In this document: piece after piece, positions 5,434-26,790 of the stretch
Position numbering within the stretch: position 1 is the first letter of the stretch
Layout of the letters: every line of letters starts with the position of its first letter
The notes under the pieces: model-generated
The model's input: only the letters and a program-made list of their open reading frames with translations
The model's database searches: none
What the model was told of the DNA's origin: nothing
Sequence record: MZ501075
Length of the DNA: 64,000 bases
Reading direction: 5' to 3' (one strand)
Origin: Escherichia phage IrisVonRoten
Translations under genes and position numbers: made by a program

Positions 5434-6807
5434 ATGACTATTGATATTAATAAGCTGAAAGAAGAACTTGGTCTGGGTGATCTGGCTAAATCTCTGGAAG
5501 GTCTGACCGCTGCTCAGAAAGCTCAGGAAGCTGAACGTATGCGTAAAGAGCAGGAAGAAAAAGAACTGGCTCGTATGAATGACCTGGTTTCTAAAGCAGT
5601 TGGCGAAGATCGTAAGCGTCTGGAAGAGGCTCTGGATCTGGTTAAGTCTCTGGATGAGAAATCTAAGAAGAGCGCAGAACTGTTTGCACAAACTGTAGAA
5701 AAACAACAGGAAACTATTGTTGGTCTTCAGGATGAAATTAAATCTCTGCTGACAGCTCGTGAAGGTCGCTCCTTCGTCGGTGATAGCGTAGCTAAAGCAC
5801 TGTACGGTACTCAAGAAAACTTTGAAGATGAAGTTGAAAAACTAGTTCTGTTATCTTATGTAATGGAAAAGGGTGTATTCGAGACCGAACATGGTCAGAG
5901 ACACCTGAAAGCAGTGAATCAGTCCTCTTCTGTAGAAGTTTCTAGTGAAAGCTATGAAACTATTTTCTCCCAGCGTATTATCCGTGACCTGCAGAAAGAG
6001 CTGGTAGTTGGCGCACTGTTCGAAGAACTGCCGATGTCTAGTAAAATTCTTACTATGTTGGTTGAGCCAGACGCTGGTAAAGCTACTTGGGTTGCTGCTT
6101 CTACTTATGGTACTGATGCAACTACTGGTGATGAAGTTAAAGGTGCTCTTAAAGAAATCCACTTCAGTACTTACAAACTGGCTGCTAAGTCCTTCATTAC
6201 TGATGAAACTGAAGAAGATGCAATCTTCTCTCTGCTGCCTCTGCTGCGTAAGCGCCTGATTGAAGCACACGCTGTTTCTATCGAAGAAGCGTTTATGACT
6301 GGTGATGGTTCTGGTAAGCCGAAAGGCCTGTTGACTCTTGCTAGCGAAGATGGTGCTAAAGTTGCTACTGAAGCTAAAGCTGATGGTACTGTTCTGGTAA
6401 CTGCTAAAACTATCTCTAAACTGCGTCGTAAACTGGGTCGTCATGGTCTGAAACTGAGCAAACTGGTACTTATCGTATCTATGGATGCTTACTATGATCT
6501 TCTGGAAGATGAAGAATGGCAGGATGTTGCACAGGTTGGTAACGATGCTGTTAAACTGCAAGGTCAGGTTGGTCGTATTTACGGTCTGCCGGTTGTAGTT
6601 TCTGAGTACTTCCCAGCTAAAGCTGCTTCCGCAGAGTTCGCAGTTATTGTTTATAAAGATAACTTCGTAATGCCGCGTCAGCGTGCTGTTACTGTTGAGC
6701 GTGAGCGCCAAGCTGGTAAACAGCGTGACGCATACTACGTTACCCAGCGTGTTAACCTGCAACGTTACTTTGCAAATGGCGTTGTATCTGGTACTTACGC
6801 TGCTTAA
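5434..6807 (+). CDS. major capsid protein precursor (HK97-fold, with N-terminal scaffolding delta domain)
   Basis: 457 aa; N-terminal ~150 aa coiled-coil-rich (delta domain-like); strongly biased optimal codons (CTG, CGT, GGT); strong hairpin terminator downstream. Confidence 0.9.
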   Translation: MTIDINKLKEELGLGDLAKSLEGLTAAQKAQEAERMRKEQEEKELARMNDLVSKAVGEDRKRLEEALDLVKSLDEKSKKSAELFAQTVEKQQETIVGLQDEIKSLLTAREGRSFVGDSVAKALYGTQENFEDEVEKLVLLSYVMEKGVFETEHGQRHLKAVNQSSSVEVSSESYETIFSQRIIRDLQKELVVGALFEELPMSSKILTMLVEPDAGKATWVAASTYGTDATTGDEVKGALKEIHFSTYKLAAKSFITDETEEDAIFSLLPLLRKRLIEAHAVSIEEAFMTGDGSGKPKGLLTLASEDGAKVATEAKADGTVLVTAKTISKLRRKLGRHGLKLSKLVLIVSMDAYYDLLEDEEWQDVAQVGNDAVKLQGQVGRIYGLPVVVSEYFPAKAASAEFAVIVYKDNFVMPRQRAVTVERERQAGKQRDAYYVTQRVNLQRYFANGVVSGTYAA

Positions 6808-6828
6808 TACAGGCTTTTCAGCCGATAA

Positions 6829-6852
6829 GGAGAGCTTCGGCTCTCCTTTTTT
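6829..6852 (+). terminator. rho-independent terminator after major capsid gene
   Basis: GGAGAGC-TTCG-GCTCTCC stem-loop followed by TTTTTT. Confidence 0.75.
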
Positions 6853-6866
6853 ATTGGGAAAAATAA

Positions 6867-7379
6867 ATGCAAATCATCACAGCTGAAGATTATAGATTAT
6901 ACGGTGGTTTAAAACGACCTGAATTAGAATCTGGAGTAGAGATGATGATTACTGCTGCCAATGCGCTGATTACTAGCCTTTTAGGTATGGATGATGCTGA
7001 TGCGGTAGACCAGTTAATCAATACAAAACCTACTCGTAAAAAATACTTTTTAAGTTCTCCCTCGGCTACTTCAGTAACCAAAATAACTATTAACGACAAG
7101 GAGATAGACCCCGAGCAATATAGGCTGTACTCTGATGGGGTTATACTTCTTAAATTTAATCCTCCAGAAGGTTATATGGATGTAGCATATACACAAGGTG
7201 GATTTAATCCAATACCTGAGGATCTCAAACTTGCAGCATGTATGCTAGTAGATCATTGGCACAAACAGGATTATCGCCAAGCTAAAACAATTGGTGGAGA
7301 AACAGTTACTTTTAATAATACTAAGTCTGGTATTCCAGAGCATATTCGTACTATTATTGAAGTTTACAGGAGAGTATAA
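6867..7379 (+). CDS. head completion / connector protein (T5 p144-like)
   Basis: 170 aa; position after capsid gene; size and order match T5 late region as recalled. Confidence 0.4.
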   Translation: MQIITAEDYRLYGGLKRPELESGVEMMITAANALITSLLGMDDADAVDQLINTKPTRKKYFLSSPSATSVTKITINDKEIDPEQYRLYSDGVILLKFNPPEGYMDVAYTQGGFNPIPEDLKLAACMLVDHWHKQDYRQAKTIGGETVTFNNTKSGIPEHIRTIIEVYRRV

Positions 7380-8146
7380 TGTCTCTTTCTGATTTAGCTA
7401 CACAAATTATTAAGGAGCAGCTAGATAATGTTGGACGTTCCGAGAACAATAAGAATACTGTTGTATACTCTGTTGAAACAGGACTGAAAGATCCTACTAG
7501 AGATGGTACTGTTGCTCAGGTATCTTTTAAATTCTCAAAACCTGTATCCCAAGACCTCCTTAATGTTAGGACCGCTTCTATTCTAAAAGCAGTTTCTTCT
7601 AGCTTAGATCTAACAGGAGATTTAGGTGCTCTAGAGAATTTAATACAAGCAACCGCCGGTAAAAAATCTGCTGTAGGTAAAAAACGTTCTACTGGTAGAG
7701 TTCAAGTAAACTTTGGGGATCCTAGAGACGTAGAAGATGGATATTCTGGTGCAGTAACAGGTGCTTCTGGTCGTTTTGTATCAAATAGTAATATGAAGGT
7801 TATTCTGGAGTTGGTTGCTAAAGAATACTTAATAAAGGATATGAAAAAAGCAGGAGCTCCACTTAAATTTAGAACAGGTCGTTTTGCAAATTCTCTAAAA
7901 ATTAAAGATGTTATGCTTAGAGATGCTGGAACTAGCAAAGGTGCTCCTGAATTAAATGTTACATATAATTATATGGTACGTCCATATTCAGTATTTAATC
8001 CTGCAGTATCTACATATCGAAGATTGTCATTACGACCCTACCCAGGTGCTAGAAACCCCCAAAGACTAATTGGAGAGGCTATAGCTAAAGCTGCAAGAGA
8101 CTTAATTCACTCCAGATATAAAATTAAGGTTAATCAAGGAACCTAA
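7379..8146 (+). CDS. tail completion protein (T5 p143-like)
   Basis: 255 aa; ATGTCT start overlaps previous stop; synteny. Confidence 0.4.
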   Translation: MSLSDLATQIIKEQLDNVGRSENNKNTVVYSVETGLKDPTRDGTVAQVSFKFSKPVSQDLLNVRTASILKAVSSSLDLTGDLGALENLIQATAGKKSAVGKKRSTGRVQVNFGDPRDVEDGYSGAVTGASGRFVSNSNMKVILELVAKEYLIKDMKKAGAPLKFRTGRFANSLKIKDVMLRDAGTSKGAPELNVTYNYMVRPYSVFNPAVSTYRRLSLRPYPGARNPQRLIGEAIAKAARDLIHSRYKIKVNQGT

Positions 8147-8149
8147 TAA

Positions 8150-8635
8150 ATGGATCACAGAACAAGTATAGCACAAGCTCTGGTTGATCGAATAGCCAAA
8201 CAAATGGATGGCTCTCAACCAGATGAATATTTTAATAACTTGTATGGAAACGTCTCACGTCAAACTTATAAGTTTGAGGAGATACGAGAGTTTCCTTATG
8301 TTGCAGTTCATATCGGAACTGAAACTGGGCAGTATCTTCCCTCAGGTCAACAGTGGATGTTTTTAGAACTTCCTATCCTGGTGTATGATAAAGAGAAAAC
8401 AGACATTCAAGAGCAACTTGAAAAACTCGTAGCGGATATAAAAACCGTTATTGACACAGGTGGAAATTTAGAATATACTGTTAGTAAACCTAATGGATCG
8501 ACCTTCCCATGTGAGGCGACTGATATGAGCATTACATCAGTTAGTACAGATGAGGGTCTACTGGCCCCATATGGTTTAGCAGAAATAAATGTAACAGTGA
8601 GGTATCAGCCTCCACGTAGGTCACTTCGCAGATAA
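8150..8635 (+). CDS. tail terminator protein (T5 p142-like)
   Basis: 161 aa; directly upstream of tail tube gene; synteny and size. Confidence 0.4.
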   Translation: MDHRTSIAQALVDRIAKQMDGSQPDEYFNNLYGNVSRQTYKFEEIREFPYVAVHIGTETGQYLPSGQQWMFLELPILVYDKEKTDIQEQLEKLVADIKTVIDTGGNLEYTVSKPNGSTFPCEATDMSITSVSTDEGLLAPYGLAEINVTVRYQPPRRSLRR

Positions 8636-8661
8636 GTTACAGATTAGGAGAAAATAATTAA

Positions 8662-10059
8662 ATGTCTTTACAACTATTACGTAATACTCGAATCTTCGTG
8701 TCTACGGTTAAGACTGGTCATAATAAGACCAACACGCAAGAGATTCTAGTTCAGGATGATATTTCTTGGGGTCAGGACAGTAACTCAACAGATATTACTG
8801 TTAATGAAGCTGGTCCGCGTCCAACTCGTGGTTCTAAACGTTTTAATGACTCTTTAAACGCGGCTGAGTGGAGTTTCTCTACTTACATCCTGCCCTATAT
8901 CAATAAAGATGATCAGAAGCAAATCGTTCCTGACTATATGTTATGGCATGCACTTTCTAGTGGTAAAGCTATTAACTTAGAAGGTAATACAGGGGCACAC
9001 AATAACGAAGCTAACTTCATGGTTAACTTCAAAGATAACTCCTACCATGAGTTAGCAATGTTACATATTTATATTCTGACTGATAAAGCATGGAGTTATA
9101 TCGATTCCTGTCAGATTAATCAGGCAGAAGTTAACGTTGATATCGAAGATATTGGCCGTGTAACTTGGTCTGGTAATGGTAATCAGCTCATTCCTCTGGA
9201 TGCGCAACCATTTGACCCAGATGAGTTAGGTATTGATGATGAAACTTATATGACTATCCAGGGTTCTTATATTAAGAACAAACTAACGATTTTGAAGATC
9301 AAAGACATGGATACCAATAAGTCTTATGATATTCCTATTACTGGTGGTACTTTCACTATTAATAACAACATCACGTACCTAACCCCGAATATTATGTCTC
9401 GTGTTAATATTCCAATTGGTTCATTTACTGGTGCTTTTGAATTAACTGGTTCATTAACTGCTTATCTGAATGATAAGTCTCTTGGTTCTATGGAGCTGTA
9501 TAAAGATCTTATCAAAACTCTGAAGGTAGTTAACCGCTTCGAAATTGCTCTAGTACTTGGTGGTGAATACGATGAAGAACGTCCTGCGGCTATTCTGGTA
9601 GCTAAACAAGCACACGTTAATACTCCTACTATTGAAACTGATGATGTACTTGGTACTTCAGTAGAGTTTAAAGCTATTCCATCTGATCTGGATGCTGGTG
9701 ACGAAGGTTACTTAGGCTTCTCTAGTAAATATACCAAAACAACTATTAATAACTTGATTGTTAATGGTGATGGTGCTACTAATGCTGTAACTGCAATTAC
9801 TGTTAAATCTGCTGGTGATGCTACTACAGTAAATAACTCGGCTACTCTTCAAATGAGTGTTGAAGTTACTCCTTCTTCCGCAAAGAATAAGGAAGTTACT
9901 TGGGCTATCACTGCCGGTGATGCAGCTACAATTGATCCAGAATCTGGCCTATTAACTGCGGACACCACTAAAACTGGTGAAGTAACTGTAGAAGCTACTG
10001 CTAAAGATGGTTCTGGAGTTAAAGGTACTAAACAGATTACTGTAACAGCAGGTGGCTAA
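8662..10059 (+). CDS. major tail tube protein (pb6-like) with C-terminal Ig-like (Big_2-type) domain
   Basis: 465 aa; C-terminal TWAITAGDAATIDPESGLLTADTTKTGEVTVEATAKDGSG resembles Big_2 Ig-like domain; size as T5 pb6. Confidence 0.75.
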   Translation: MSLQLLRNTRIFVSTVKTGHNKTNTQEILVQDDISWGQDSNSTDITVNEAGPRPTRGSKRFNDSLNAAEWSFSTYILPYINKDDQKQIVPDYMLWHALSSGKAINLEGNTGAHNNEANFMVNFKDNSYHELAMLHIYILTDKAWSYIDSCQINQAEVNVDIEDIGRVTWSGNGNQLIPLDAQPFDPDELGIDDETYMTIQGSYIKNKLTILKIKDMDTNKSYDIPITGGTFTINNNITYLTPNIMSRVNIPIGSFTGAFELTGSLTAYLNDKSLGSMELYKDLIKTLKVVNRFEIALVLGGEYDEERPAAILVAKQAHVNTPTIETDDVLGTSVEFKAIPSDLDAGDEGYLGFSSKYTKTTINNLIVNGDGATNAVTAITVKSAGDATTVNNSATLQMSVEVTPSSAKNKEVTWAITAGDAATIDPESGLLTADTTKTGEVTVEATAKDGSGVKGTKQITVTAGG

Positions 10060-17020: not shown

Positions 17021-19866
17021 AGAAAATACTAGATAGTGCTAGAAACTACTTAAAAAATAATAGCAGAATAAAAACTGCTAGTCTAATTTCTCTAGAATTA
17101 CCTGGCTCTACTGGTACTAGTACTGCTTTTATTTACTTAACTGATTATTTTAGAGATGTACTATATAATGGTATTTTGTACCAGGCCGGTAAAGTTAAGT
17201 CTATTAGCACACATAAACAAAATAGAGATTTATCTATTGGCAGTCTATCTTTTACTATTACGGGTACAGCGCAGGATGAAGTACTGAAATTAGTGCAGAA
17301 TGGTGTATCCTTTTTAGATAGACTAGTATCAATCCACCAAGCAATTATTACAGAGGATGGTTCTATTTTACCTGTAGACCCAGACACAAATGGCCCTTTA
17401 TTATACTTTAGAGGGAGAATTACTGGTGGGGGTATTAAGGACAATATTAGTACTTCTGGGGTTGGAACCTCCACAATTACTTGGAATTGTTCTAACCAAT
17501 TCTATGATTTTGATAGGGTTAATGGTAGATTTACTGATGATGCTTCTCACAGAGGGCTTGAAGTTGTGGCAGGACAATTAGTTCCATCTAACGGGGCTAA
17601 AAGACTTGAATACCAAGAAGATTATGGGTTCTTTCATGCTAATAAAAGTATCTCTATTCTAGCAAAATATCAGGTACAGGAAGAAAGATACAAGCTAAAG
17701 TCTAAGAAAAAGCTATTTGGCCTATCTAGAAGCTATAGTCTTAAAAAGTATTATGAGACTGTTACTAAAGAAGTAGATATAGATTTTAACCTTGCTGCTA
17801 AGTATATACCAGTAGTTTATGGTGTACAGAAAATACCGGGAATACCTATTTTTGCGGATACGGAATTACACAATCCTAATATAGTTTACGTAGTATATGC
17901 TTTTGCTGAAGGAGAGATAGACGGTTTTCTTGACTTTTCCTTCGGGGATAACCCTATGATTTGTATGGACTCTAATGATAGCTCTGCTAGAACCTGTTTC
18001 GGTGTTAAAAAAGTAGCTGGAGACACCATGCAAAGAATAGCATCAGGAGTATCTTCTAGTAGTCCTTCTGTGCATGGTCAGGAATATAAGTATAATGATG
18101 GTAATGGTGATATAAGGATTTGGACTTATCATGGAAAAGCAGACCAAACGGCTTCTGAAGTATTAGTAGACATAGCGAAAGAACGTGGGTTCTACCTTCA
18201 AAATATGAACGGTAATGGGCCTGAATACTGGGATGCTAGGTATAAACTACTAGATACTGCATACGCGGTAGTACGTTTTACTATTAATGAAAATAGGACT
18301 GAGATTCCAGAAGTTAGTGCTGAGATTCAGGGTAAGAAGATAAAAATCTATCATTCTGATGGTAGAGTAACTGCTAATAGTACTAGTTTAAATGGTATTT
18401 GGCAAACACTTGATTACTTAACTTCAGATAGATACGGAGCTAACATTACTATTGATCAGTTCCCTCTTCAACAATTGATACAAGAAGCTGCTATCCTAGA
18501 TATTATAGATGAATCTTACCAAGTATCCTGGCAACCATACTGGAGATACGTTGGGTGGACTGATCCATTAGCAGAAAATAGACAAATAGTACAAATGAAT
18601 ACTATTCTAGATACATCTGAATCAGTATTTAAAAACGTACAAGGTTTGTTAGAGTCCTACGGTGGGGCTATTAACAACTTATCCGGTCAGTATAGGATTA
18701 CTGTAGAAAAATATTCTAATACTCCATTAGAGATTAATTTTCTGGATACTTATGGTGATTTGGAGCTATCAGATACTACTGGTAGAAATAAATTCAACTC
18801 AGTTCAAGCATCTATCATAGACCCAGCTCTTAGCTGGAAAACTAATGCTATTACCTTTTACAACTCTAAATATAAAGAGCAAGATAAAAATCTAGACAAA
18901 AAATTACAGTTATCTTTTGCAAATATAACTAACTACTATACTGCTAGAAGTTTTGCAGACAGAGAACTTAAGAAATCTAGGTATTCTAGAACCCTCTCAT
19001 TTTCTTTACCATATCAATTCATTGGTATTGAGCCTAACGATGCTATTGCATTTACATACGACCGTTATGGATGGGATAAGAAATACTTTTTAGTAGATGA
19101 AGTAGAAAACTCTAGAGAAGGAAAGATAAACGTCACCCTACAGGAGTATGGAGAAGATGTATTTATCAACTCTGATCAAGTAGATAATAGTGGTAATGAT
19201 ATACCAGATATTAGTAACAATGTTCTTCCTCCTAGAGATTTTAAATATACTCCTACACCCGGTGGTTTAGTTGGCTCTATAGGAAAAAATGGTGAGCTAT
19301 CTTGGCTTCCAAGTTTAACTAATAACGTAGTTTATTACTCTATCGTGCATTCAGGTCATGCTGAACCCTATATCGTGCAACAACTAGAAACAAACCCCAA
19401 TGAACGCATGATCCAAGAGATAATTGGAGAGCCTGCAGGTTTAGCAATATTTGAAATAAGGGCTGTGGATATAAACGGTAGAAGAAGTTCTCCAGTAACA
19501 TTATCTATAGAACTTAACTCTGCTAAAAACCTAAGCGTAGTATCTAATTTTAGAGTAACTAATACGGCCTCTGGGGATGTAACTGAGTTTGTAGGCCCAG
19601 ATGTAAAACTAGCTTGGGATAGGATACCGGAAGAAGATATAATAGAAAGTATATTCTATACTCTGGAGATCTATGATTCTCAGAATAGAATGCTAAGAAG
19701 TGTACGCATTGAAAATCAGTATACTTATGACTATTTATTAACATATAATAAGGCAGATTTTGCTCTTCATAACAGTGGTGCTCTAGGGATCAATAGAAAA
19801 CTATATTTTCGTATTAGAGCAGAAGGAGATGATGGAGAACAGTCTGTGGAGTGGGCATCCATTTAA
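17017..19866 (+). CDS. baseplate hub protein (pb3-like)
   Basis: 949 aa, same size as T5 pb3 as recalled; follows Dit with ATGA overlap. Confidence 0.7.
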   Translation: MKKILDSARNYLKNNSRIKTASLISLELPGSTGTSTAFIYLTDYFRDVLYNGILYQAGKVKSISTHKQNRDLSIGSLSFTITGTAQDEVLKLVQNGVSFLDRLVSIHQAIITEDGSILPVDPDTNGPLLYFRGRITGGGIKDNISTSGVGTSTITWNCSNQFYDFDRVNGRFTDDASHRGLEVVAGQLVPSNGAKRLEYQEDYGFFHANKSISILAKYQVQEERYKLKSKKKLFGLSRSYSLKKYYETVTKEVDIDFNLAAKYIPVVYGVQKIPGIPIFADTELHNPNIVYVVYAFAEGEIDGFLDFSFGDNPMICMDSNDSSARTCFGVKKVAGDTMQRIASGVSSSSPSVHGQEYKYNDGNGDIRIWTYHGKADQTASEVLVDIAKERGFYLQNMNGNGPEYWDARYKLLDTAYAVVRFTINENRTEIPEVSAEIQGKKIKIYHSDGRVTANSTSLNGIWQTLDYLTSDRYGANITIDQFPLQQLIQEAAILDIIDESYQVSWQPYWRYVGWTDPLAENRQIVQMNTILDTSESVFKNVQGLLESYGGAINNLSGQYRITVEKYSNTPLEINFLDTYGDLELSDTTGRNKFNSVQASIIDPALSWKTNAITFYNSKYKEQDKNLDKKLQLSFANITNYYTARSFADRELKKSRYSRTLSFSLPYQFIGIEPNDAIAFTYDRYGWDKKYFLVDEVENSREGKINVTLQEYGEDVFINSDQVDNSGNDIPDISNNVLPPRDFKYTPTPGGLVGSIGKNGELSWLPSLTNNVVYYSIVHSGHAEPYIVQQLETNPNERMIQEIIGEPAGLAIFEIRAVDINGRRSSPVTLSIELNSAKNLSVVSNFRVTNTASGDVTEFVGPDVKLAWDRIPEEDIIESIFYTLEIYDSQNRMLRSVRIENQYTYDYLLTYNKADFALHNSGALGINRKLYFRIRAEGDDGEQSVEWASI

Positions 19867-21923
19867 TGATTTCGAATAATGCACCAGCCAAAATGGTCTT
19901 AAATAGTATAATGACTGGATATACAATGGCGTATGTCCAGCACTCCATTTATACTGATTATGATGTTATTGGTAGATCTTTTTGGTTAAAAATAGGAGAA
20001 AGTATAGATAGACGTGATTACACCGGTATAGATACTTTCTTCGTAATGATTAATAATTTAACCCCCTCTACCTCCTATGAGATTCAGGGGGCTTTCTATG
20101 ACTCAATTATTGACTCAGAGTTACTAGAAGCTAAGATTGGTATCAACCTCTCTAATGAAACTAACTTTAGAACAAAGGAAAAGCCAATAATTACTGCAGC
20201 AAGATCTGAATCAGAACCCGTTGACGTTGGTGTTGGTGCTCCAATAGTTGTTGTAGAGACTGCTGGTGAGGCTAGTTACTGCACTATTGAATTAAAAAGT
20301 ACTGCATCAGAAGATAGTGAATGGGTTAAATATTACATAGGAGCACTGGGACCTACTATCAAATTTGGTGGTGTTCCTGTTGGCAACTATAAGATCAGAA
20401 TATCTGGTCAAGTTACTATGCCAGATGGTGTTACAGTTGACTCATCTGGCTATTATGAATATCCTAGCGTTTTCACTGTAGCTTATAATTTCGTACCACC
20501 TACTGCACCTACTAACATTGACTTTAAAGCTGCACGAATCGCAGACGGTAAGGAACGATATGATGTTAGAATAGAGTGGGACTGGGAACGTGGTGGTGGT
20601 GCTAATGTTCGTGAGTTCTTGGTTACATATATAAATTCTGAAGAATACGCTAAGACTGGCTGGGCTAAAGCTCAAAAGATAAACGTTGGTGCTGCTAGAG
20701 CTGCAACAATTATATCATTCCCATGGAAAGTTGAACATACTTTTAAGGTATCATCAATTGCCTGGGGACCAAATAAACAAGATATAACAGAATCAGCTCC
20801 TGTAACATTTATATTGAATGAAGATACTCCTCTAGATAACAGCTTTGTCAATGAGACGGGTATTGATGTTAACTATGCCTTTATTAAGGGCAGCATGAAA
20901 GATGGAGAAATCTGGAGACAGACATTCTTAATCGATGCAGCTACTGGTGCTATTAACATTGGTCTGCTAGATGAAGAAGGAAAAGCACCTATTTCTTTTG
21001 ATCCTATAAACCGTGTTGTTAACGTTGATGGTAAAGTAATTACTAGAGATATTAATGCTGCGAACTTTATCATGACTAACTTATCTGGTAAGGATAATCC
21101 AGCAATTTACACTCAAGGTAAATCTTGGGGGGATAATAACTCAGGTATTTGGATGGGTATGGATAATACCTCTGCCAAAGCTAAACTAGACATTGGTAAC
21201 GCTACACAATGGATACGTTATGATGGTACTACTTTGCGTATCTCTAGTGGTGTAGTAATTGGGACACCAAATGGTGACGTAGATATTGAGACTGGTTTAC
21301 AAGGTAAACAGACAGTATTTGTTTATAAGTTAGCAACATCTCTACCTGCTAAACCACTAGAACAAGATTATCCACCTCCTGGTTGGTCAAAAACTCCACC
21401 TAACCGTACAGATATGACACAAAATATCTATGCGACTACGGGTACGCTTGATCCAGTTACTAACAAACTTCTTGAAGGTACTAGCTGGTCTGATGTAGTT
21501 CAGTGGAGTGGTACTGAAGGTACTATAGGACATGATGGACAACGTGGTCCTGGAATGTACTCCATAGGTATAGCAGGTTTAGGTGGTTGGGATGATGGAC
21601 AAGCTAATTCCTTCTTTCAAAGTAACTTCGGTTCTCCCCCAGTTAAATATGATGTATTAACTGAATTTAATAGTAATGCACCACAATCAGCATTTACAAG
21701 GCAATGGAATGGGTCTGGTTGGGTTAACCCTGCAATGGTTCTCCACGGAAACATGATTGTTAATGGGACGGTGACGGCAGATAAAATTGTAGCAGGAAAT
21801 GCTTTCTTATCTCAGATCGGTGTTAACATCATTTATGATAGGAACGCTGCGTTATCAGGAAACCCTGAGGCATACTACAAGATGAAGATAGACCTAAATA
21901 GTGGGTATATCCATATAAGGTAA
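19866..21923 (+). CDS. tail tip / central fibre protein (pb4-like)
   Basis: ~685 aa from ATG 19866 (TAATG overlap with pb3-like stop); synteny with T5 pb4. Confidence 0.6.
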   Translation: MISNNAPAKMVLNSIMTGYTMAYVQHSIYTDYDVIGRSFWLKIGESIDRRDYTGIDTFFVMINNLTPSTSYEIQGAFYDSIIDSELLEAKIGINLSNETNFRTKEKPIITAARSESEPVDVGVGAPIVVVETAGEASYCTIELKSTASEDSEWVKYYIGALGPTIKFGGVPVGNYKIRISGQVTMPDGVTVDSSGYYEYPSVFTVAYNFVPPTAPTNIDFKAARIADGKERYDVRIEWDWERGGGANVREFLVTYINSEEYAKTGWAKAQKINVGAARAATIISFPWKVEHTFKVSSIAWGPNKQDITESAPVTFILNEDTPLDNSFVNETGIDVNYAFIKGSMKDGEIWRQTFLIDAATGAINIGLLDEEGKAPISFDPINRVVNVDGKVITRDINAANFIMTNLSGKDNPAIYTQGKSWGDNNSGIWMGMDNTSAKAKLDIGNATQWIRYDGTTLRISSGVVIGTPNGDVDIETGLQGKQTVFVYKLATSLPAKPLEQDYPPPGWSKTPPNRTDMTQNIYATTGTLDPVTNKLLEGTSWSDVVQWSGTEGTIGHDGQRGPGMYSIGIAGLGGWDDGQANSFFQSNFGSPPVKYDVLTEFNSNAPQSAFTRQWNGSGWVNPAMVLHGNMIVNGTVTADKIVAGNAFLSQIGVNIIYDRNAALSGNPEAYYKMKIDLNSGYIHIR

Positions 21924-21929
21924 TAAATA

Positions 21930-22352
21930 ATGAGTACTGAAAATAGAGTTATAGACTTAGTGATAGATGAGAAAGTACCCTATGGTCTAATGATGCAATT
22001 CTTAGATGTTGATGATAGTACTTACCCACCTACAAATACCCCTGTTAATTTAACAGGGTATTCCCTAAGGGGTACTATAAAGGCCGGGCTTGACGAGAAT
22101 GCGGAAACTTTGGCATCTTTTACTACTAAAATTATTGATGCTGCTCAAGGTGCCATAGCTATAAGTTTACCTGTAGAGGCGGTAGATAATATTGGTGAAA
22201 AAGCCACCAAAGAGAGAGATAAGTATAACCCTCGCCAACGTTTTGCAGGATACTATGATATAATTATGACACGAGATGTCATAGGATCAGCTATTAGCTC
22301 TTTTCGTATAATGGAGGGTAAAGTATTTATCAGTGATGGGGTAACTAGATAA
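21930..22352 (+). CDS. collar protein (T5 p132-like)
   Basis: 140 aa, same size and position as T5 p132 as recalled. Confidence 0.55.
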
Positions 22353-24742
22353 TGGCAATAACTACTAAGATTATTGTACAACAAATATTAAATATTGATG
22401 ATACTAAAGCTACTGCTAGTAAGTTTCCTAGATACACAGTAACTCTTGGAAATTCTATTAGCTCTATTACTGCTAATGAGTTAGTATCCTCTATAGAGGC
22501 CGCTGCTAAATCTGCTGCGGCTGCAAAAGATTCTGAAATAGCAGCTAAGACTTCAGAGCTTAATGCTAAGAACTCTGAACAGGAAGCTGCTATTTCTGCC
22601 GGAGCTTCAGAAGCTTCTGCTACTCAGTCTGCTACATCTGCTACTCAATCTGCTGCATCAGCGGATAAATCTGCAGAATCAGCCGCAGCAGCTAAAGTAT
22701 CCGAGACTAACTCGAAGACTAGTGAGGCTGATGCAAAGACTAGCGAAACTAATGCAAAAACATCAGAAACTAATGCAAAGTCTAGTGAAACCAAAGCTAA
22801 GGCCTCCGAGACTAATGCTAAGGCTAGTGAAACTAATGCTGCTGCTTCGGCTGCAGCGGCAAAACTTAGTGAGACTAACGCAAAGGTCAGTGAGACTAAT
22901 GCTGCCGCTTCTGCTGCGGATTCCAGTGGTTTTAGGAATGAGGCGGAAACATTCTCTACACAAGCTGCTACATCAGCGTCTGCTGCAAAAACCTCCGAAA
23001 CAAAGGCTAAAACTAGCGAAACTAATGCAAAAACTAGTGAGACTAAAGCCAAAGCTAGTGAGACTAACGCAGCTAGTTCCGCAACCTCAGCTAGTCAGTC
23101 AGTAACTACTATACAAGGCTTAAAATCAGATGTTGAGCAACTAAAATCAGATACTCAGGCCATTAAAAACAGTGCTGTAACAGAGACAACAGCTATAAAG
23201 GCAGATGTTGCGCAGTTAAAAACAGACACACAAGGTATTAAGAATAGTGCGGTAACAGAAACTACCGCGTTAAAAAACCAAGCTGCAACTTCCGCAACTA
23301 ATGCAGCTAGTTCTGCAACAGAAGCAGGAAAACAAGCTACTAATGCTGCCAATAGTGCTAAGACTGCCAAGACTGAGGCCGACCGTTCAAAAACTGAGGC
23401 TGATAGATCAGAAGCTGCTGCTAATTCTACCCCCGACATTCAACCTCTTCCAGATGTATGGATACCTTTCAACGACTCGCTGGACATGCTAGCAGGATTT
23501 GCACCAGGCTATAAGCAAATAACTGTAGGTGATGATGTTATTAAAATGCCATCCGATAAGGTTGTGGATTTCAAACGGGCGTCAGGTGCGACGTACATTA
23601 ATAAATCTGGCGTTTTAACCGTTGCAGAGATTAACGAGCCTAGATTTGAACGAGACGGCTTATTAATTGAGGGGCAAAGAACTAACTATCATCTTAATTC
23701 ACTTACGCCATCTAAGTGGGGAGCTACAACAAGTGTAACTATAACAGAAAGTGGTGTTGATGAGTTTGGCTTTACTTATGGACGGTTTCAAATAAAGGAC
23801 GAAAAAATTGGGACAAATACGACAATGAATATCGCTGCGATTCCAGGAGGAAGAGGTGTCGATGTTACTGGAACCGAAAAGTATGTTACAACATCATGTC
23901 GTGTAAAAAGTGATAGTGCTAATATACAATGTCGTATAAGATTTGAAAGATATGACGGGTCCGCATATTTTTATCTGGCAGATGCATATCTTAATATAAC
24001 AGATATGTCCATTAGAAAAACTGGAGAAGGGGCTGCAAGAATAACCGCCAGAGCGGAGAAAGAATCTAATGGATGGATTTATTTCGAGGTTACATATCAA
24101 TCTGAAGCTATTGATAATATGGTTGGCTCTCAGATCCAAATTGCTCCACCTGTGTCTCCTGGCACTTATTCTGGTGGAGAGTATTTACAGGTAGCTACAC
24201 CACAATTTGAAGGCGGGGCGTGCGCTTCATCGTTTATTATTACAGAAGCGACTCCAGTAACACGGGCAAGCGATATGGTCACATTACCAATAAAAAACAA
24301 CCTTTACAATTTGCCGTTTACAGTACTTGTGGAAGCTCATAAAAACTGGAGTATAACGCCAAATGCAGCGCCACGTGTTTTTGATACCAGCGGTCATCAA
24401 ACCGGAGCGGCTATTATTCTTGCTTTCGGATCTGCCGAAGGCGATAATGATGGATTCCCTTATTGCGATATAGGTAAATCAAATAGAAGGGTTTACGAGA
24501 ATGCAAAACTAAAAAAGATGATCATGGGAATGAGAGTAAAGAGTGATTACAATAATTGCTGTGTAAGTAATGCCAGAATATCAAGCGAAACAAAAACGGA
24601 ATGGAGATACATACAATCAACGGCTACTATAAGGATTGGAGGACAAACAAATACTGGAGAACGACATTTATTTGGCCATATCCGAAACTTTAGAATCTGG
24701 CATAAGGAACTAACTGATAGACAAATGAAGGAGTATGTATGA
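22352..24742 (+). CDS. L-shaped tail fibre protein, proximal part (LtfA-like)
   Basis: 796 aa; N-terminal Ala/Ser-rich region with >15 SETNAK-type heptad repeats; C-terminal region ending HLFGHIRNFRIWHKELTDRQMKEY resembles LamG/concanavalin-like lectin fold. Confidence 0.65.
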   Translation: MAITTKIIVQQILNIDDTKATASKFPRYTVTLGNSISSITANELVSSIEAAAKSAAAAKDSEIAAKTSELNAKNSEQEAAISAGASEASATQSATSATQSAASADKSAESAAAAKVSETNSKTSEADAKTSETNAKTSETNAKSSETKAKASETNAKASETNAAASAAAAKLSETNAKVSETNAAASAADSSGFRNEAETFSTQAATSASAAKTSETKAKTSETNAKTSETKAKASETNAASSATSASQSVTTIQGLKSDVEQLKSDTQAIKNSAVTETTAIKADVAQLKTDTQGIKNSAVTETTALKNQAATSATNAASSATEAGKQATNAANSAKTAKTEADRSKTEADRSEAAANSTPDIQPLPDVWIPFNDSLDMLAGFAPGYKQITVGDDVIKMPSDKVVDFKRASGATYINKSGVLTVAEINEPRFERDGLLIEGQRTNYHLNSLTPSKWGATTSVTITESGVDEFGFTYGRFQIKDEKIGTNTTMNIAAIPGGRGVDVTGTEKYVTTSCRVKSDSANIQCRIRFERYDGSAYFYLADAYLNITDMSIRKTGEGAARITARAEKESNGWIYFEVTYQSEAIDNMVGSQIQIAPPVSPGTYSGGEYLQVATPQFEGGACASSFIITEATPVTRASDMVTLPIKNNLYNLPFTVLVEAHKNWSITPNAAPRVFDTSGHQTGAAIILAFGSAEGDNDGFPYCDIGKSNRRVYENAKLKKMIMGMRVKSDYNNCCVSNARISSETKTEWRYIQSTATIRIGGQTNTGERHLFGHIRNFRIWHKELTDRQMKEYV
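22670..23090 (+). repeat. imperfect 21-bp tandem repeats (encode SETNAK heptads)
   Basis: repeated units such as agtgaaactaatgcaaaaact / agcgaaactaatgcaaaaaca visible directly in the sequence. Confidence 0.8.
23113..23285 (+). repeat. degenerate ~78-bp direct duplication inside fibre gene
   Basis: two adjacent units encoding LKSDVEQLKSDTQAIKNSAVTETTAIK / ADVAQLKTDTQGIKNSAVTETTALK. Confidence 0.7.
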
Positions 24743-25017
24743 GAGATATAATCCTAAAATTCACGGATAAATCAGCATATAAAGATTTTCTCGTTCAAAT
24801 AGGGTGGGATACTAATGAAACTTTGCAAAATCAAATAATGCTTGATGAAATTGGCTATACTTATACTGAAATCTCTCCGCTAGGAGATGAGGAGCCTAGA
24901 TGCACCCGTAATGAAGGGTATTATGTTAATGTAAGGATTCTTGATGAATCCTTTACTTACGAATACTTCGAGCCTTTTATAGTTCAGCTAGAACAGCCTC
25001 TTAGAGTATGGGCATAA
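24739..25017 (+). CDS. small hypothetical protein between fibre genes
   Basis: 92-aa ORF with ATGA overlap with LtfA-like stop. Confidence 0.3.
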   Translation: MRDIILKFTDKSAYKDFLVQIGWDTNETLQNQIMLDEIGYTYTEISPLGDEEPRCTRNEGYYVNVRILDESFTYEYFEPFIVQLEQPLRVWA

Positions 25018-25026
25018 GGTTTTATA

Positions 25027-26751
25027 ATGGTAACTAAAACAGTAATTCCTACGGATATTACAAAACTTAAAAATGAGTCACTTAATAAAAATAATAACCT
25101 GAGTGACTTAGCAGACCGTGCAGCAGCGTGGCTAAACGTGCGTCCTATTGGGTCCACCCCTCTTGCGGGGGATCCTGTTGGGGACTATGATGCCGCAACT
25201 AAACGTTGGGTAGAGAATAAGATTAACACTGGTACAGTTGGACCCACTATGAGTGGTGTTATGAACTACGGTGTTGGTGATTTTCACCTCCGAGATAGTC
25301 GTGCGTATATTCAACCATACGAAGTCGTTTCTGACGGACAGCTTCTTAATAGGGCTGACTGGCCTGAACTTTGGGCGTATGCACAAATGGTTGGGGCTAT
25401 AGATGATTCAGTTTGGTTAGGAGATAAATTCCAGCGCGGTAAGTACTCATCAGGGAATGGAACAACAACCTTTCGTGTTCCAGATAGAAATGGTGTGCAG
25501 TCTGGTTCAGTATATGGTCTATTTGCTCGTGGTGATGGTGGTCAAAGTAGTATTAATGGAGCAATTTATGAATCTGGTGCACCTAATATAGTTTTTACTT
25601 CTCCGCATACTATGGTAACGCTTGCTTCAGCAGCTGGCCAAGTTGCAACAATTGGAGCGTTACAATCAACCACGTCAAGTGATGCTCCGGCACCAGTAGG
25701 TTCTGGTGGTAGGTACATTAATACAAATTTTGATGCGTCAAGATGTAGTTCTATATACGGGAGAACGGTATCCGAACTACGCCCTAATAACTTCATTGGC
25801 GTCTGGGTAATCCGTGCTTCTGGTGGGTTCGTGGCTGCAAAGACTTCGTGGAGTGTTATTAGTGGTGATGCTGTCAAACCTAATACTGGTACTACTGTTT
25901 ATGGCGGGAGTGTACTATCTGAGTATAAAGTAGGTACTAGTAGTGAGGCTGTAAGTACACTACGAGCTAAAGCTACTATTGGTGGCACCTACTCTACTGA
26001 ACTACTAATAGACAATAAATCTACCGGTAAATCGAATTCCGCCCAGCTTGTAGATAATGGAGATTTTGTAACGGATCGTTTTAAAGCTAGATTAGTTACT
26101 GGCATGGCGTGGTCTCAGACTGGCTGGGTACAAGGTACTCTTTCTCAGAACGAGGTCAATATAGGTAGTACATTTAACTTTAATAGTATATTGAGCGGTT
26201 CCCAGTCTTCTTCCGCAGGGTATAAGACATCTGCACATTTTGGATTAATTCATAATGACTTAGGCTCATTTGCAGATTCTTGTTGGCAGGTAGCGGGAGA
26301 TGATGATAATAAATTTGGTGTGCGTTTAAAAATTCAGCCGAATAATAATAGTATTTATTTTTATTCTTGGTGGCCCGGTGCTTCAGCAACCTATACTTTG
26401 CAATTAAATGCTGTATCTGATTCTCGCTTAAAGCATGATATTAAGGCTATAGACGCAACTAAGTCCATCGAGGTATTAAAAGGATTAGAATTCCAATCCT
26501 TTGTATATAATAACGATGAAAAATCTCGTGTCCGACGTGGGGTTATTGCTCAGCAAGTAGAGACTATAGAACCACTTTATGTAAAAACTAGAAGATTTTA
26601 TAATGATGACGGAATAGAGCAGGAGCAAAAGGAATTAGATACAACTCCAATGCTTCTTGACACTATGCATGTTGTGCAAGATCTTATTAAACGGATTGAA
26701 GATCTGGAGAAAGAGCTTGAGCAATTAAAGGTACAATTAGTATCACAATAA
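25027..26751 (+). CDS. distal tail fibre protein (LtfB-like) with tail-collar-type domain and C-terminal intramolecular chaperone
   Basis: 574 aa; PELWAYAQMVG..TTFRVPDRNG resembles phage tail collar domain; C-terminal SRLKHDIKAID..LEFQSFVYNNDE..RRGVIAQQVE resembles S74-type self-cleaving chaperone of fibre/endosialidase proteins. Confidence 0.65.
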   Translation: MVTKTVIPTDITKLKNESLNKNNNLSDLADRAAAWLNVRPIGSTPLAGDPVGDYDAATKRWVENKINTGTVGPTMSGVMNYGVGDFHLRDSRAYIQPYEVVSDGQLLNRADWPELWAYAQMVGAIDDSVWLGDKFQRGKYSSGNGTTTFRVPDRNGVQSGSVYGLFARGDGGQSSINGAIYESGAPNIVFTSPHTMVTLASAAGQVATIGALQSTTSSDAPAPVGSGGRYINTNFDASRCSSIYGRTVSELRPNNFIGVWVIRASGGFVAAKTSWSVISGDAVKPNTGTTVYGGSVLSEYKVGTSSEAVSTLRAKATIGGTYSTELLIDNKSTGKSNSAQLVDNGDFVTDRFKARLVTGMAWSQTGWVQGTLSQNEVNIGSTFNFNSILSGSQSSSAGYKTSAHFGLIHNDLGSFADSCWQVAGDDDNKFGVRLKIQPNNNSIYFYSWWPGASATYTLQLNAVSDSRLKHDIKAIDATKSIEVLKGLEFQSFVYNNDEKSRVRRGVIAQQVETIEPLYVKTRRFYNDDGIEQEQKELDTTPMLLDTMHVVQDLIKRIEDLEKELEQLKVQLVSQ

Positions 26752-26756
26752 AAGAA

Positions 26757-26790
26757 AACCCCAGTGGACAAAATCCACTGGGGTTTATTA
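26757..26790. terminator. bidirectional rho-independent terminator between convergent late (+) and early (-) modules
   Basis: CCCCAGTGGA-CAAAA-TCCACTGGGG with T-rich tract on + and A-rich (T-rich on -) tract upstream. Confidence 0.7.

Follow-up and report, generated by a model that had tools for sequence, protein, structure and literature searches.

We analyzed the lateral tail fibre locus in a 64,000-nucleotide stretch of DNA from Escherichia phage IrisVonRoten (record MZ501075), which is called the window here. The locus consists of three co-oriented genes on the + strand downstream of ltfC. According to the listing of open reading frames (ORFs), their products have 796, 92 and 574 amino acids (aa); we refer to genes and products as P1, P2 and P3. 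This agrees with a first-pass annotation, made from the sequence alone, which had described a lateral-fibre locus split into two fibre genes and a small ORF; the interpretation given there is upheld in part. The three genes probably specify one composite appendage made of two fibres.

The stop codon of P1 overlaps the start codon of P2 in the sequence ATGA, an AAGGAG Shine-Dalgarno sequence precedes P2 on its 5' side, and the gap between P2 and the start of P3 is 9 nt. The overlap, the Shine-Dalgarno sequences and the presence of a single terminator argue for co-expression of P1, P2 and P3, which appear to form the last part of a single late transcription unit. The hairpin behind P3 (Table 1) is probably a bidirectional terminator that forms the border between the late structural block and the genes on the opposite strand, which encode dUTPase, flap endonuclease and the D14/D13 products; terminators are annotated at the equivalent place in phage AKFV33.

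Table 1. Positions of the fibre genes, their parts and the flanking features in the window.
Feature	Position	Strand	Evidence
P1, proximal lateral tail fibre protein, 796 aa	22352-24742	+	ORF; phrog_1419 tail protein, E=1.6e-265
P1 aa 1-360, LtfA-type N-terminal anchor, then Ala/Ser/Thr/Glu-rich heptad shaft	22352-23431	+	match to DT57C LtfA
21-bp array 1 (7-aa SETNAKx), 6 copies	22715-22839; extended family 22690-22914	+	Tandem Repeats Finder
21-bp array 2, 4.1 copies	22985-23071; extended family 22963-23103	+	Tandem Repeats Finder
75-bp (25-aa) tandem duplication, copies 75% identical	23121-23195 and 23196-23270	+	repeat search
P1 aa 361-449, neck	23432-23698	+	most conserved part of the shared cassette, many invariant columns
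P1 aa 450-639, β-sandwich of the gene transfer agent (GTA) head-spike-fibre/carbohydrate-binding module (CBM) type	23699-24268	+	NF048003, match to the Rhodobacter capsulatus GTA (RcGTA), AlphaFold 2 (AF2), Foldseek
P1 aa 640-796, terminal LamG/ConA-like domain, transitive assignment	24269-24739	+	intermediate sequences and profiles
P2, 92-aa conserved partner of the P1 head	24739-25017	+	ORF
P3, distal fibre of the 'T-shaped' class with intramolecular chaperone, 574 aa	25027-26751	+	phrog_6921 tail fibre, E=4e-193
P3 N-terminal motif MVTKTVIPTDITKLK, proposed plug into the P1/P2 junction	25027-25071	+	motif shared by all P3
P3 aa 97-162, collar-like (gp12-like) motif region	25315-25512	+	sub-threshold PF07484; internal similarity to LtfA 342-404
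P3 aa 160-260, hypervariable patch	25504-25806	+	20-60% identity to mar004NP2, flanks 100% identical
P3 aa 464-574, Peptidase_S74 intramolecular chaperone, predicted Ser464/Lys469 dyad	26416-26748	+	PF13884
pb4 (straight fibre), upstream neighbour	19851-21923		four PB4 Pfam domains
ltfC, collar protein holding lateral fibres on the tail, 140 aa	21930-22352	+	Pfam PF23926 LtfC, E=8e-15
Hairpin, probable bidirectional terminator, separating P3 from the convergent dUTPase gene	26756-26786		13-14 bp perfect G+C-rich stem, 7 G-C pairs, T runs on both strands

The Tequintaviruses vB_Eco_mar004NP2, PMBT29 and SPLA5b share about 93% identity with the window over the 24 kb around the locus. Judged by this identity and by the pb4, ltfC and dut neighbours, the window belongs to a T5-like phage (Tequintavirus). 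In mar004NP2 and AKFV33 the annotation of the ltfC counterpart names a collar protein by which the L-shaped fibres are attached. An Rfam scan of the region matched no family, promoter-like sites in the region were not in excess over chance, and the GC content across the locus gave no clear boundary of foreign DNA. Three further ORFs of 66-180 aa, at 22563-23105 (+), 22645-23052 (-) and 22763-22963 (-), were rejected as genes; their translations are of low complexity, rich in Leu, Ala and Ser, and are by-products of the heptad repeats.

The proximal fibre protein P1

The N-terminal part of P1 resembles the anchors of known lateral fibres. Residues 1-218 align with aa 1-233 of LtfA from phage DT57C (PDB 8hqz_d; E=3.9e-36), and aa 3-199 match phrog_24369, a family of the T5 pb1 type with 1396 positions (E=4e-51). 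The first 100 aa are almost identical across the P1 proteins of T5-like phages. In the cryo-electron microscopy structure of DT57C, the N-terminus of LtfA runs into a dodecameric ring of LtfC, and from T40 onwards it makes up a coiled coil of three helices (PMC10713586). The P1 orthologue of mar004NP2 carries the note 'confirmed structural protein by MS', i.e. by mass spectrometry (sequence record; PMC6563131).

The shaft that follows is built from repeats. SETNAK repeats and 21-bp tandem repeats, both claimed by the first-pass annotation, are present as two arrays of period 21; a repeat search found a family of nine members with 21-nt spacing across both arrays, and the protein contains 11 SET[NK]A[KA] heptad motifs spaced 7 aa apart. 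A duplication of about 78 bp had also been claimed. The tandem duplication is real, but its unit is 75 bp, with the divergence between copies given in Table 1. When seven P1 proteins from T5-like phages were aligned, all of the insertions and deletions in the shaft fell in the repeats. The protein of VSe12 has a 98-aa in-frame deletion that fuses the two SETNAK arrays, that of AKFV33 lacks 31 aa and 7 aa within the arrays, that of L009 lacks 7 aa in array 2, and that of HMD-P4 has one additional 7-aa unit, EADRAKA. The number of 25-aa units is one in HMD-P4, two in the window and three in AKFV33. Because all shaft length differences among these proteins map to the repeats, the alignment supports the suggestion, made before any comparison, that they are hotspots of length variation.

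Two further observations concern the shaft. In Salmonella phage VSe12 (2908-6231) the P3 frame appears disrupted as well; its longest ORF has an internal start and stops prematurely, with 277 aa. With its shortened P1 and seemingly broken P3 this phage may have arisen, in nature or by selection in the laboratory, as a variant with defective fibres, similar to the DT530(1) deletion among the relatives of DT57C. The second observation is that the duplicated segment TTIQGLKSDVEQLKSDTQ of the window (P1 aa 252-309; 23105-23280) resembles the starts (IPTDITKLKSDVSTLKQD) of the short P3 proteins of HMD-P4, tonn and JenP2. The likeness could reflect a shared coiled-coil linker used for module recombination, or it could be the trace of an ancestral fusion or split.

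The last 436 aa of P1 form a separate module, the head, which consists of the neck, a CBM-like β-sandwich and a LamG-like end. The neck is 73-85% identical in all siphovirus loci compared. The most solid domain of the head is the β-sandwich of the GTA head-spike-fibre/CBM type rather than the LamG-like end; the first-pass annotation had missed it. The NCBIfam model NF048003 (GTA_spike_fiber) matches P1 aa 438-639 with 56.9 bits, against a cut-off of 36 (E=4e-15), and the match covers positions 1-181 of the 182 in the profile. A phmmer search aligned aa 407-654 with the RcGTA protein Rcc01080 (E=1.3e-7). Structure prediction with AF2, a check that had been proposed for the C-terminal domain of P1, gave a confident β-sandwich with predicted local distance difference test (pLDDT) values of 78-95, the usable model being limited to aa 450-620, but it did not confirm a LamG fold. 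Foldseek searches with the β-sandwich model retrieved the tail fibres of Pseudomonas phages Pa193/E217 together with CBM4, CBM22 and legume lectins. The head spike fibre of RcGTA binds capsular polysaccharide (PMC10218006). The fold likeness to CBM4, CBM22 and lectins, together with the data on RcGTA, supports aa 450-639 as a predicted polysaccharide binder.

The claim that P1 ends in a LamG-like domain is accepted here as a transitive assignment, not as a demonstrated fold. In a Pfam scan P1 gave no match to any family, LamG and S74 included, even at E<=10. An exhaustive HMMER search with aa 640-796, however, found only 60 cluster representatives, of which the distant ones carry PF13385 (Laminin_G_3) at the aligned region. 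The PF13385 cut-off is passed by P0178 (a full-length match, E=2.3e-9), P0201 and P0189; P0193, P0194 and P0200 match too. A profile of this family compared with the PDB weakly hit the lectin-like subdomain (HCN) of botulinum neurotoxin type D (E=0.014) and pentraxins (E~0.5), and hhalign against LamG gave a probability of 93.7% over the C-terminal 41 columns, which hold the characteristic motif. AF2 predicted strands for aa 640-796, with pLDDT values of 24-43.

The CBM-like and LamG-like subdomains are 27-98% identical among T5-like phages. Variation of this kind on a conserved neck is the pattern expected of receptor-binding parts that sit on a conserved joint. We had also considered that the head is uniformly conserved and serves as a mere docking platform. 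This was rejected since the CBM-like and LamG-like parts fall to 27-40% identity among T5-like phages; the seeming uniformity was a selection effect, because the top 120 matches are all at least 60% identical.

The distal fibre protein P3 and the 92-aa protein P2

P3 is related to both lateral fibre proteins of DT57C: aa 3-568 are 45% identical to LtfA 511-1073, and aa 30-347 are 62% identical to LtfB 206-528. Its body (aa 49-557) is 60.9% identical to Bas87_0009 of phage AnnaHegner, a distal gene that follows a long proximal fibre, and 56-61% identical to fibres of Kuravirus/phiEco32-like podoviruses and of Wifcevirus myoviruses. These relatives include the T-shaped fibres (AnnaHegner Gp10, ManiWeber Gp114 and IrisVonRoten Gp24), which combine a gp12-like receptor-binding domain (RBD1), a T5-like RBD2 and an intramolecular chaperone (Humolli 2025, PMC11990801). 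In the Tequintavirus IrisVonRoten, the T-shaped fibre hangs on a long proximal fibre (Humolli 2025, PMC11990801). The exemplars of this class, like the gp14/gp15 fibres of phiEco32, share the homologous body with P3 and sit on a longer proximal fibre. They differ in the N-terminal attachment segment, since the homology of P3 starts only at aa 29-49, and P3 is placed in the class by its sequence.

The pattern T.{1-3}IP.DIT.LK begins all of the P3 proteins examined, which come from T5-like, Queuovirinae and T1-like phages and from Escherichia prophages. The bodies behind it are otherwise unrelated and vary from 224 to 590 aa.

A collar-type domain, which had been assigned to P3 from the sequence, is matched below the threshold. 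The Pfam model PF07484 (Collar) scores 13.2-16.1 bits against a cut-off of 24 (E=0.09 to 0.011) and aligns over 17 profile positions, 38-54; the same weak match nevertheless recurs in all seven relatives of P3 that were scanned, with a best E of 0.0014. When a profile of the region was compared with the PDB, LtfA of DT57C was the only match and T4 gp12 was not found. The adjoining patch at aa 160-260 is unalignable among the relatives in their consensus and is likely a determinant of specificity, as its divergence between conserved flanks suggests.

The self-cleaving chaperone-type C-terminus that the first-pass annotation had recognized in P3 is a solid assignment by profile and motif. PF13884 matches aa 464-516 with 46.9 bits against a cut-off of 22 (E=3.4e-12), and the region also aligns with the chaperone region of gp37 from phage S16 (6f45; E=3.8e-5). 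The domain starts with SDSRLK at aa 464-469; this S-D-x-R-x-K sequence is what we take to be the Ser-Lys dyad motif and spacing of the S74 family. Eleven of the 12 P3 proteins tabulated have an SD.R.K or SS.R.K motif near the C-terminus.

P2 belongs to phrog_1361, a family of unknown function. By tblastn it was found in 209 phage records, and the carriers include T5-like phages, Queuovirinae (JenP1/2, VogelGryff), Drexlerviridae (tonn, swan01), Dhillonvirus, lambdoid phages (ev207) and rV5-like phages (pangalan). A profile search returned 364 proteins, all of them labelled 'hypothetical' and many present in hundreds of E. coli genomes. Nine loci came from IMG/VR and four from the GTDB representative genomes, numbers too small for statistics, but they show a family that is essentially restricted to Escherichia. 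In all examined loci in which the upstream gene is present, P2 directly follows a fibre gene with a P1-type head. P1-P2 occurs without P3 in four loci, which is why we regard P2 as belonging to P1 and P3 as an add-on. Over 13 non-independent loci the identity of P2 correlates with that of the neck at r=0.64 and with that of the variable head subdomains at r~0.4. Co-evolution of P2 with the variable subdomains, as would be seen for a dedicated chaperone, is not supported by the latter value. P2 may be an accessory protein, a chaperone or an adaptor of the P1 head.

Related loci and the distribution of the cassette

Comparison with other T5-like fibre loci, another check that had been proposed, found the same three-gene order and sizes in AKFV33 (orf137/136/135), vB_Eco_mar004NP2, SPLA5b, PMBT29, L6jm and SelmaRatti (Bas34). 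The layout is therefore not new. The proteins of mar004NP2 are 93.5% (P1), 92% (P2) and 88% (P3) identical to those of the window; the window differs from the other three-gene Tequintaviruses in allelic patches, such as P3 aa 160-260, and in its own repeat content. In SelmaRatti, from the BASEL collection, the small ORF is annotated 'tail fiber protein'. AKFV33 was counted in 2016 among the phages with two ltf genes (Golomidova, PMC4728585), and for mar004NP2 the upstream gene was suggested to form a fibre together with the 'ltfB' orthologue (Michniewski 2019, PMC6563131). Later comparative work recognises two locus variants only (PMC10644984). In the searchable literature we found no experimental work on the P1 head, on P2 or on the N-terminal motif of P3, which is an absence of matches and not proof of absence.

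Among characterised systems, the branched LtfA/LtfB fibre of DT57C and DT571/2 comes closest (Golomidova 2016, PMC4728585; Ayala 2023, PMC10713586). DT57C has the same genomic slot, with pb4, ltfC, the fibre genes and a convergent dut, and it shares with the window the N-terminal LtfA anchor found in P1, the use of two fibre proteins and an S74 chaperone on the distal one. Its docking elements are missing from the window. P1 lacks the docking region of LtfA that resembles phiEco32 gp14 (LtfA aa 223-471), and BLASTP aligns only LtfA aa 1-235. P3 lacks the gp15-like N-terminal 45 aa of LtfB, aligns from LtfB aa 206 and starts with MVTKTVIPTDITKLK, unlike LtfB, which starts with MSRPLMPKSG. Both fibres of DT57C end in S74, whereas in the window PF13884 is found in P3 only and P1 ends in the GTA-spike/CBM and LamG-like head. 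Finally, a 92-aa gene lies between the fibre genes of the window and none does in DT57C. Because the gp14-like region, the gp15-like N-terminus and the proximal S74 are all absent, the window does not have branching of the DT57C type; by analogy, its fibre would work like that of DT57C without being a member of that type.

The T5 protein pb1, a single Ltf of 1396 aa, has a homologous anchor and shaft start and an S74 domain of the type found at the end of P3. In T5, however, these belong to one polypeptide, whereas the window has the anchor/shaft and the S74 tip on separate proteins, together with an extra globular head and P2. Lateral fibres of the T5 type serve in reversible binding to the O-antigen (PMC4728585; PMC11990801). 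The RcGTA protein Rcc01080 is homologous in sequence to P1 aa 407-654; it is a single chain that sits on a capsid pentamer and is attached by an N-terminal Leu-Gly repeat (PMC7296036), whereas the domain in the window is predicted to end a trimeric tail fibre and is followed by the LamG-like domain.

The unit of P1 head, P2 and P3 recurs in T5-like, T1-like, Queuovirinae and lambdoid phages and in prophages, behind different anchors. The anchors of P1 follow the phage family and are of the LtfA type in T5, of the PF08400 type of λ Stf, of the T1 type and of the rV5 type; the T1-like and Queuovirinae P1 proteins have other N-termini. Prophages of Escherichia have the cassette at the J-lom-stf-tfa position, with the N-terminal λ Stf domain PF08400 on P1. 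The position is thus that of λ Stf/Tfa, but neither the head nor P2 nor P3 is related by sequence to the Stf tip or Tfa, and family searches gave no match. The rV5-like phages (pangalan) have the P1-head/P2 part only, and P1-P2 without P3 is also found in ev207 and in two prophages of Escherichia ruysiae (L023 and L024).

Several observations were made on the surroundings of the cassette and on the records that carry it. In the lambdoid prophages L017-L019 (E. coli chromosomes, 7007-9301) the cassette is followed by a gene for a conserved 95-aa membrane protein, which is also next after P2 in phage ev207. Beyond this gene the prophages encode, on the opposite strand, a reverse transcriptase (PF00078) and a SLATT_5 protein, a pair that resembles a retron-type defence system. 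In ev207 (5677-9126) the sitABCD operon for an iron/manganese ABC transporter lies directly downstream of the cassette and looks like a cargo (moron) insertion. The records 'Listeria phage LM 4-14-1', 'LM 4-11-1' and 'Campylobacter phage C13/C12/C15/C2/C11' carry T5-like or rV5-like fibre genes of Escherichia/Salmonella with up to 97% identity; they are probably mislabelled or contaminant assemblies. Likewise, the 2.8-kb contig JAGZNZ010000051.1, labelled as a Collinsella metagenome-assembled genome, contains the P2-P3 pair of an Escherichia prophage and is probably mis-binned.

The proposed composite fibre and its alternatives

We consider it probable that the locus encodes a composite lateral (L-shaped) appendage of two fibres, which are joined where the neck, P2 and the N-terminus of P3 meet and which carry several glycan-binding modules. 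The reading starts from the gene structure, homologies, domain content, cassette distribution and repeat-driven length variation established above. Trimers of P1 would be fixed to the tail by LtfA-type N-termini that thread into the LtfC collar ring. They would extend as an α-helical coiled coil, with a length set by the heptad repeats, and would end in the globular head formed by the neck, the CBM-like β-sandwich, whose homologue in RcGTA is the capsule-binding head-spike fibre, and the LamG-like domain. P2, which is translationally coupled to P1 and always occurs with the P1 head, would be an accessory subunit or assembly factor of the neck. The P3 trimer would fold with the help of its C-terminal S74 chaperone, which would then be cut off at Ser464 to leave a mature P3 of about 463 aa, and its N-terminal motif T..IP.DIT.LK would plug into the neck/P2 junction. 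Each fibre arm would in this way present at least two, possibly three, glycan-recognition modules, namely the CBM+LamG head of P1, the collar-like domain of P3 and the P3 tip. These modules may bind O-antigen-type polysaccharides reversibly, in a step that precedes the binding of the central fibre to its receptor, an outer-membrane protein.

The argument for the junction comes from the distribution of the cassette. P3 lacks an anchor specific to any one tail, and its N-terminus stays the same in phages whose tails are unrelated; its partner is therefore expected inside the cassette, in the neck and/or P2. The junction is proposed to include P2 because the identity of P2 follows that of the neck better than that of the variable subdomains, which is a weak trend. 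A wider reading, which we advance tentatively, is that the neck, P2 and T..IP.DIT.LK might form a universal plug-and-socket joint for the exchange of distal fibres among Escherichia/Salmonella siphoviruses of at least four groups, counted as T5-like phages, T1-like phages, Queuovirinae and lambdoid prophages. P2 would then be a new small fibre-junction protein, and each arm could hold up to three independent glycan-binding modules.

A number of points weigh against the composite fibre. The N-terminal motif of P3 resembles the ordinary coiled-coil starts that occur inside fibre shafts, and common descent, not docking, could account for part of its conservation. The P3 orthologue of mar004NP2 (MAR004NP2_00162) was not among the eight proteins of that phage detected by mass spectrometry (PMC6563131), and annotations in BASEL/GenBank call the short P3 proteins 'putative lateral tail fiber chaperone'. 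Searches with the structure and sequence of P2 gave no informative relative, and P2 tracks the neck only loosely at the value of r given above. The confidence of AF2 is low (pLDDT <50) for the neck monomer and the LamG-like part. The attachment of P3 to P1/P2 is itself a step that we infer, as are the role of P2, the binding of glycans, the recognition of two different polysaccharides that the first-pass annotation suggested, and the actual receptors.

Some of these data would suit other arrangements. The P1 head could be a structural knee in a serial, T4-like jointed fibre, where it would carry P3 as the sole receptor binder and P2 would be a joint protein like T4 gp35/gp36. The high conservation of the neck and the lack of co-variation between P2 and the CBM/LamG subdomains are in line with such a knee; so are the location of the hypervariable patch in P3 and the earlier proposal that the P3 class holds two receptor-binding domains (PMC11990801). 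We nevertheless regard it as unlikely, since the divergence of the CBM/LamG-like subdomains among close T5-like phages is unexpected for a pure knee and the RcGTA homologue of the head binds capsule. Moreover, the loci with P1-P2 and without P3 (ev207, pangalan, L023 and L024) imply that the head must be able to serve as the end of a fibre. These loci also bear on the idea that P3 is not attached to P1, but forms a short fibre of its own at another place on the tail tip, or that its short relatives are folding chaperones acting in trans on P1. In them P1-P2 folds without P3, which counts against the idea. In its favour are the lack of an intramolecular chaperone in P1, the GenBank annotation and the missing mass spectrometry signal; weak densities in DT57C further suggest that LtfB is able to bend back against the tail tip (PMC10713586). 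An unattached P3 is still very improbable in our view. The N-terminal motif, found across the unrelated tail tips of T5-like phages, T1-like phages, Queuovirinae and lambdoid prophages, cannot be tied to a single tail. S74 domains work on the β-helix of the chain to which they belong, as established for the K1F endosialidase and T5 pb1 (see also PMC4728585), and a P3 of 574 aa contains a full fibre body homologous to functional receptor-binding fibres.

It is possible, if not our preferred view, that P2 does no more than help the P1 head to assemble, as a transient chaperone in the position of λ Tfa, that it is absent from the virion and that it has nothing to do with the attachment of P3. Its place immediately 3' of the fibre gene with translational coupling, its tfa position in lambdoid prophages (J-lom-P1-P2), its retention where P3 is missing and the lack of an intramolecular chaperone in P1 all speak for this.

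The range of O-antigen types that a T5-like phage is able to penetrate is set by its lateral fibres, and the modular organisation of these fibres therefore matters for the prediction of host range and for the engineering of therapeutic phages. The literature usually sorts T5-like loci as 'single Ltf' or 'LtfA+LtfB', and the locus in the window represents a third layout, which is common and has been sequenced but is uncharacterised. The strongest new points of our analysis are the GTA-spike/CBM-like domain and the conserved elements of the junction, which are common to hundreds of Escherichia prophages and to several groups of phages. Should no such junction exist, what remains is a further allele of a familiar and highly mosaic fibre region. 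If the neck, P2 and the P3 N-terminus do form a junction, it would be a defined, portable site for swapping receptor-binding fibres and would give a function to a widespread hypothetical family of 92-aa proteins. The main value of the finding is a testable hypothesis of a portable junction and a candidate role for a common 'hypothetical' protein.

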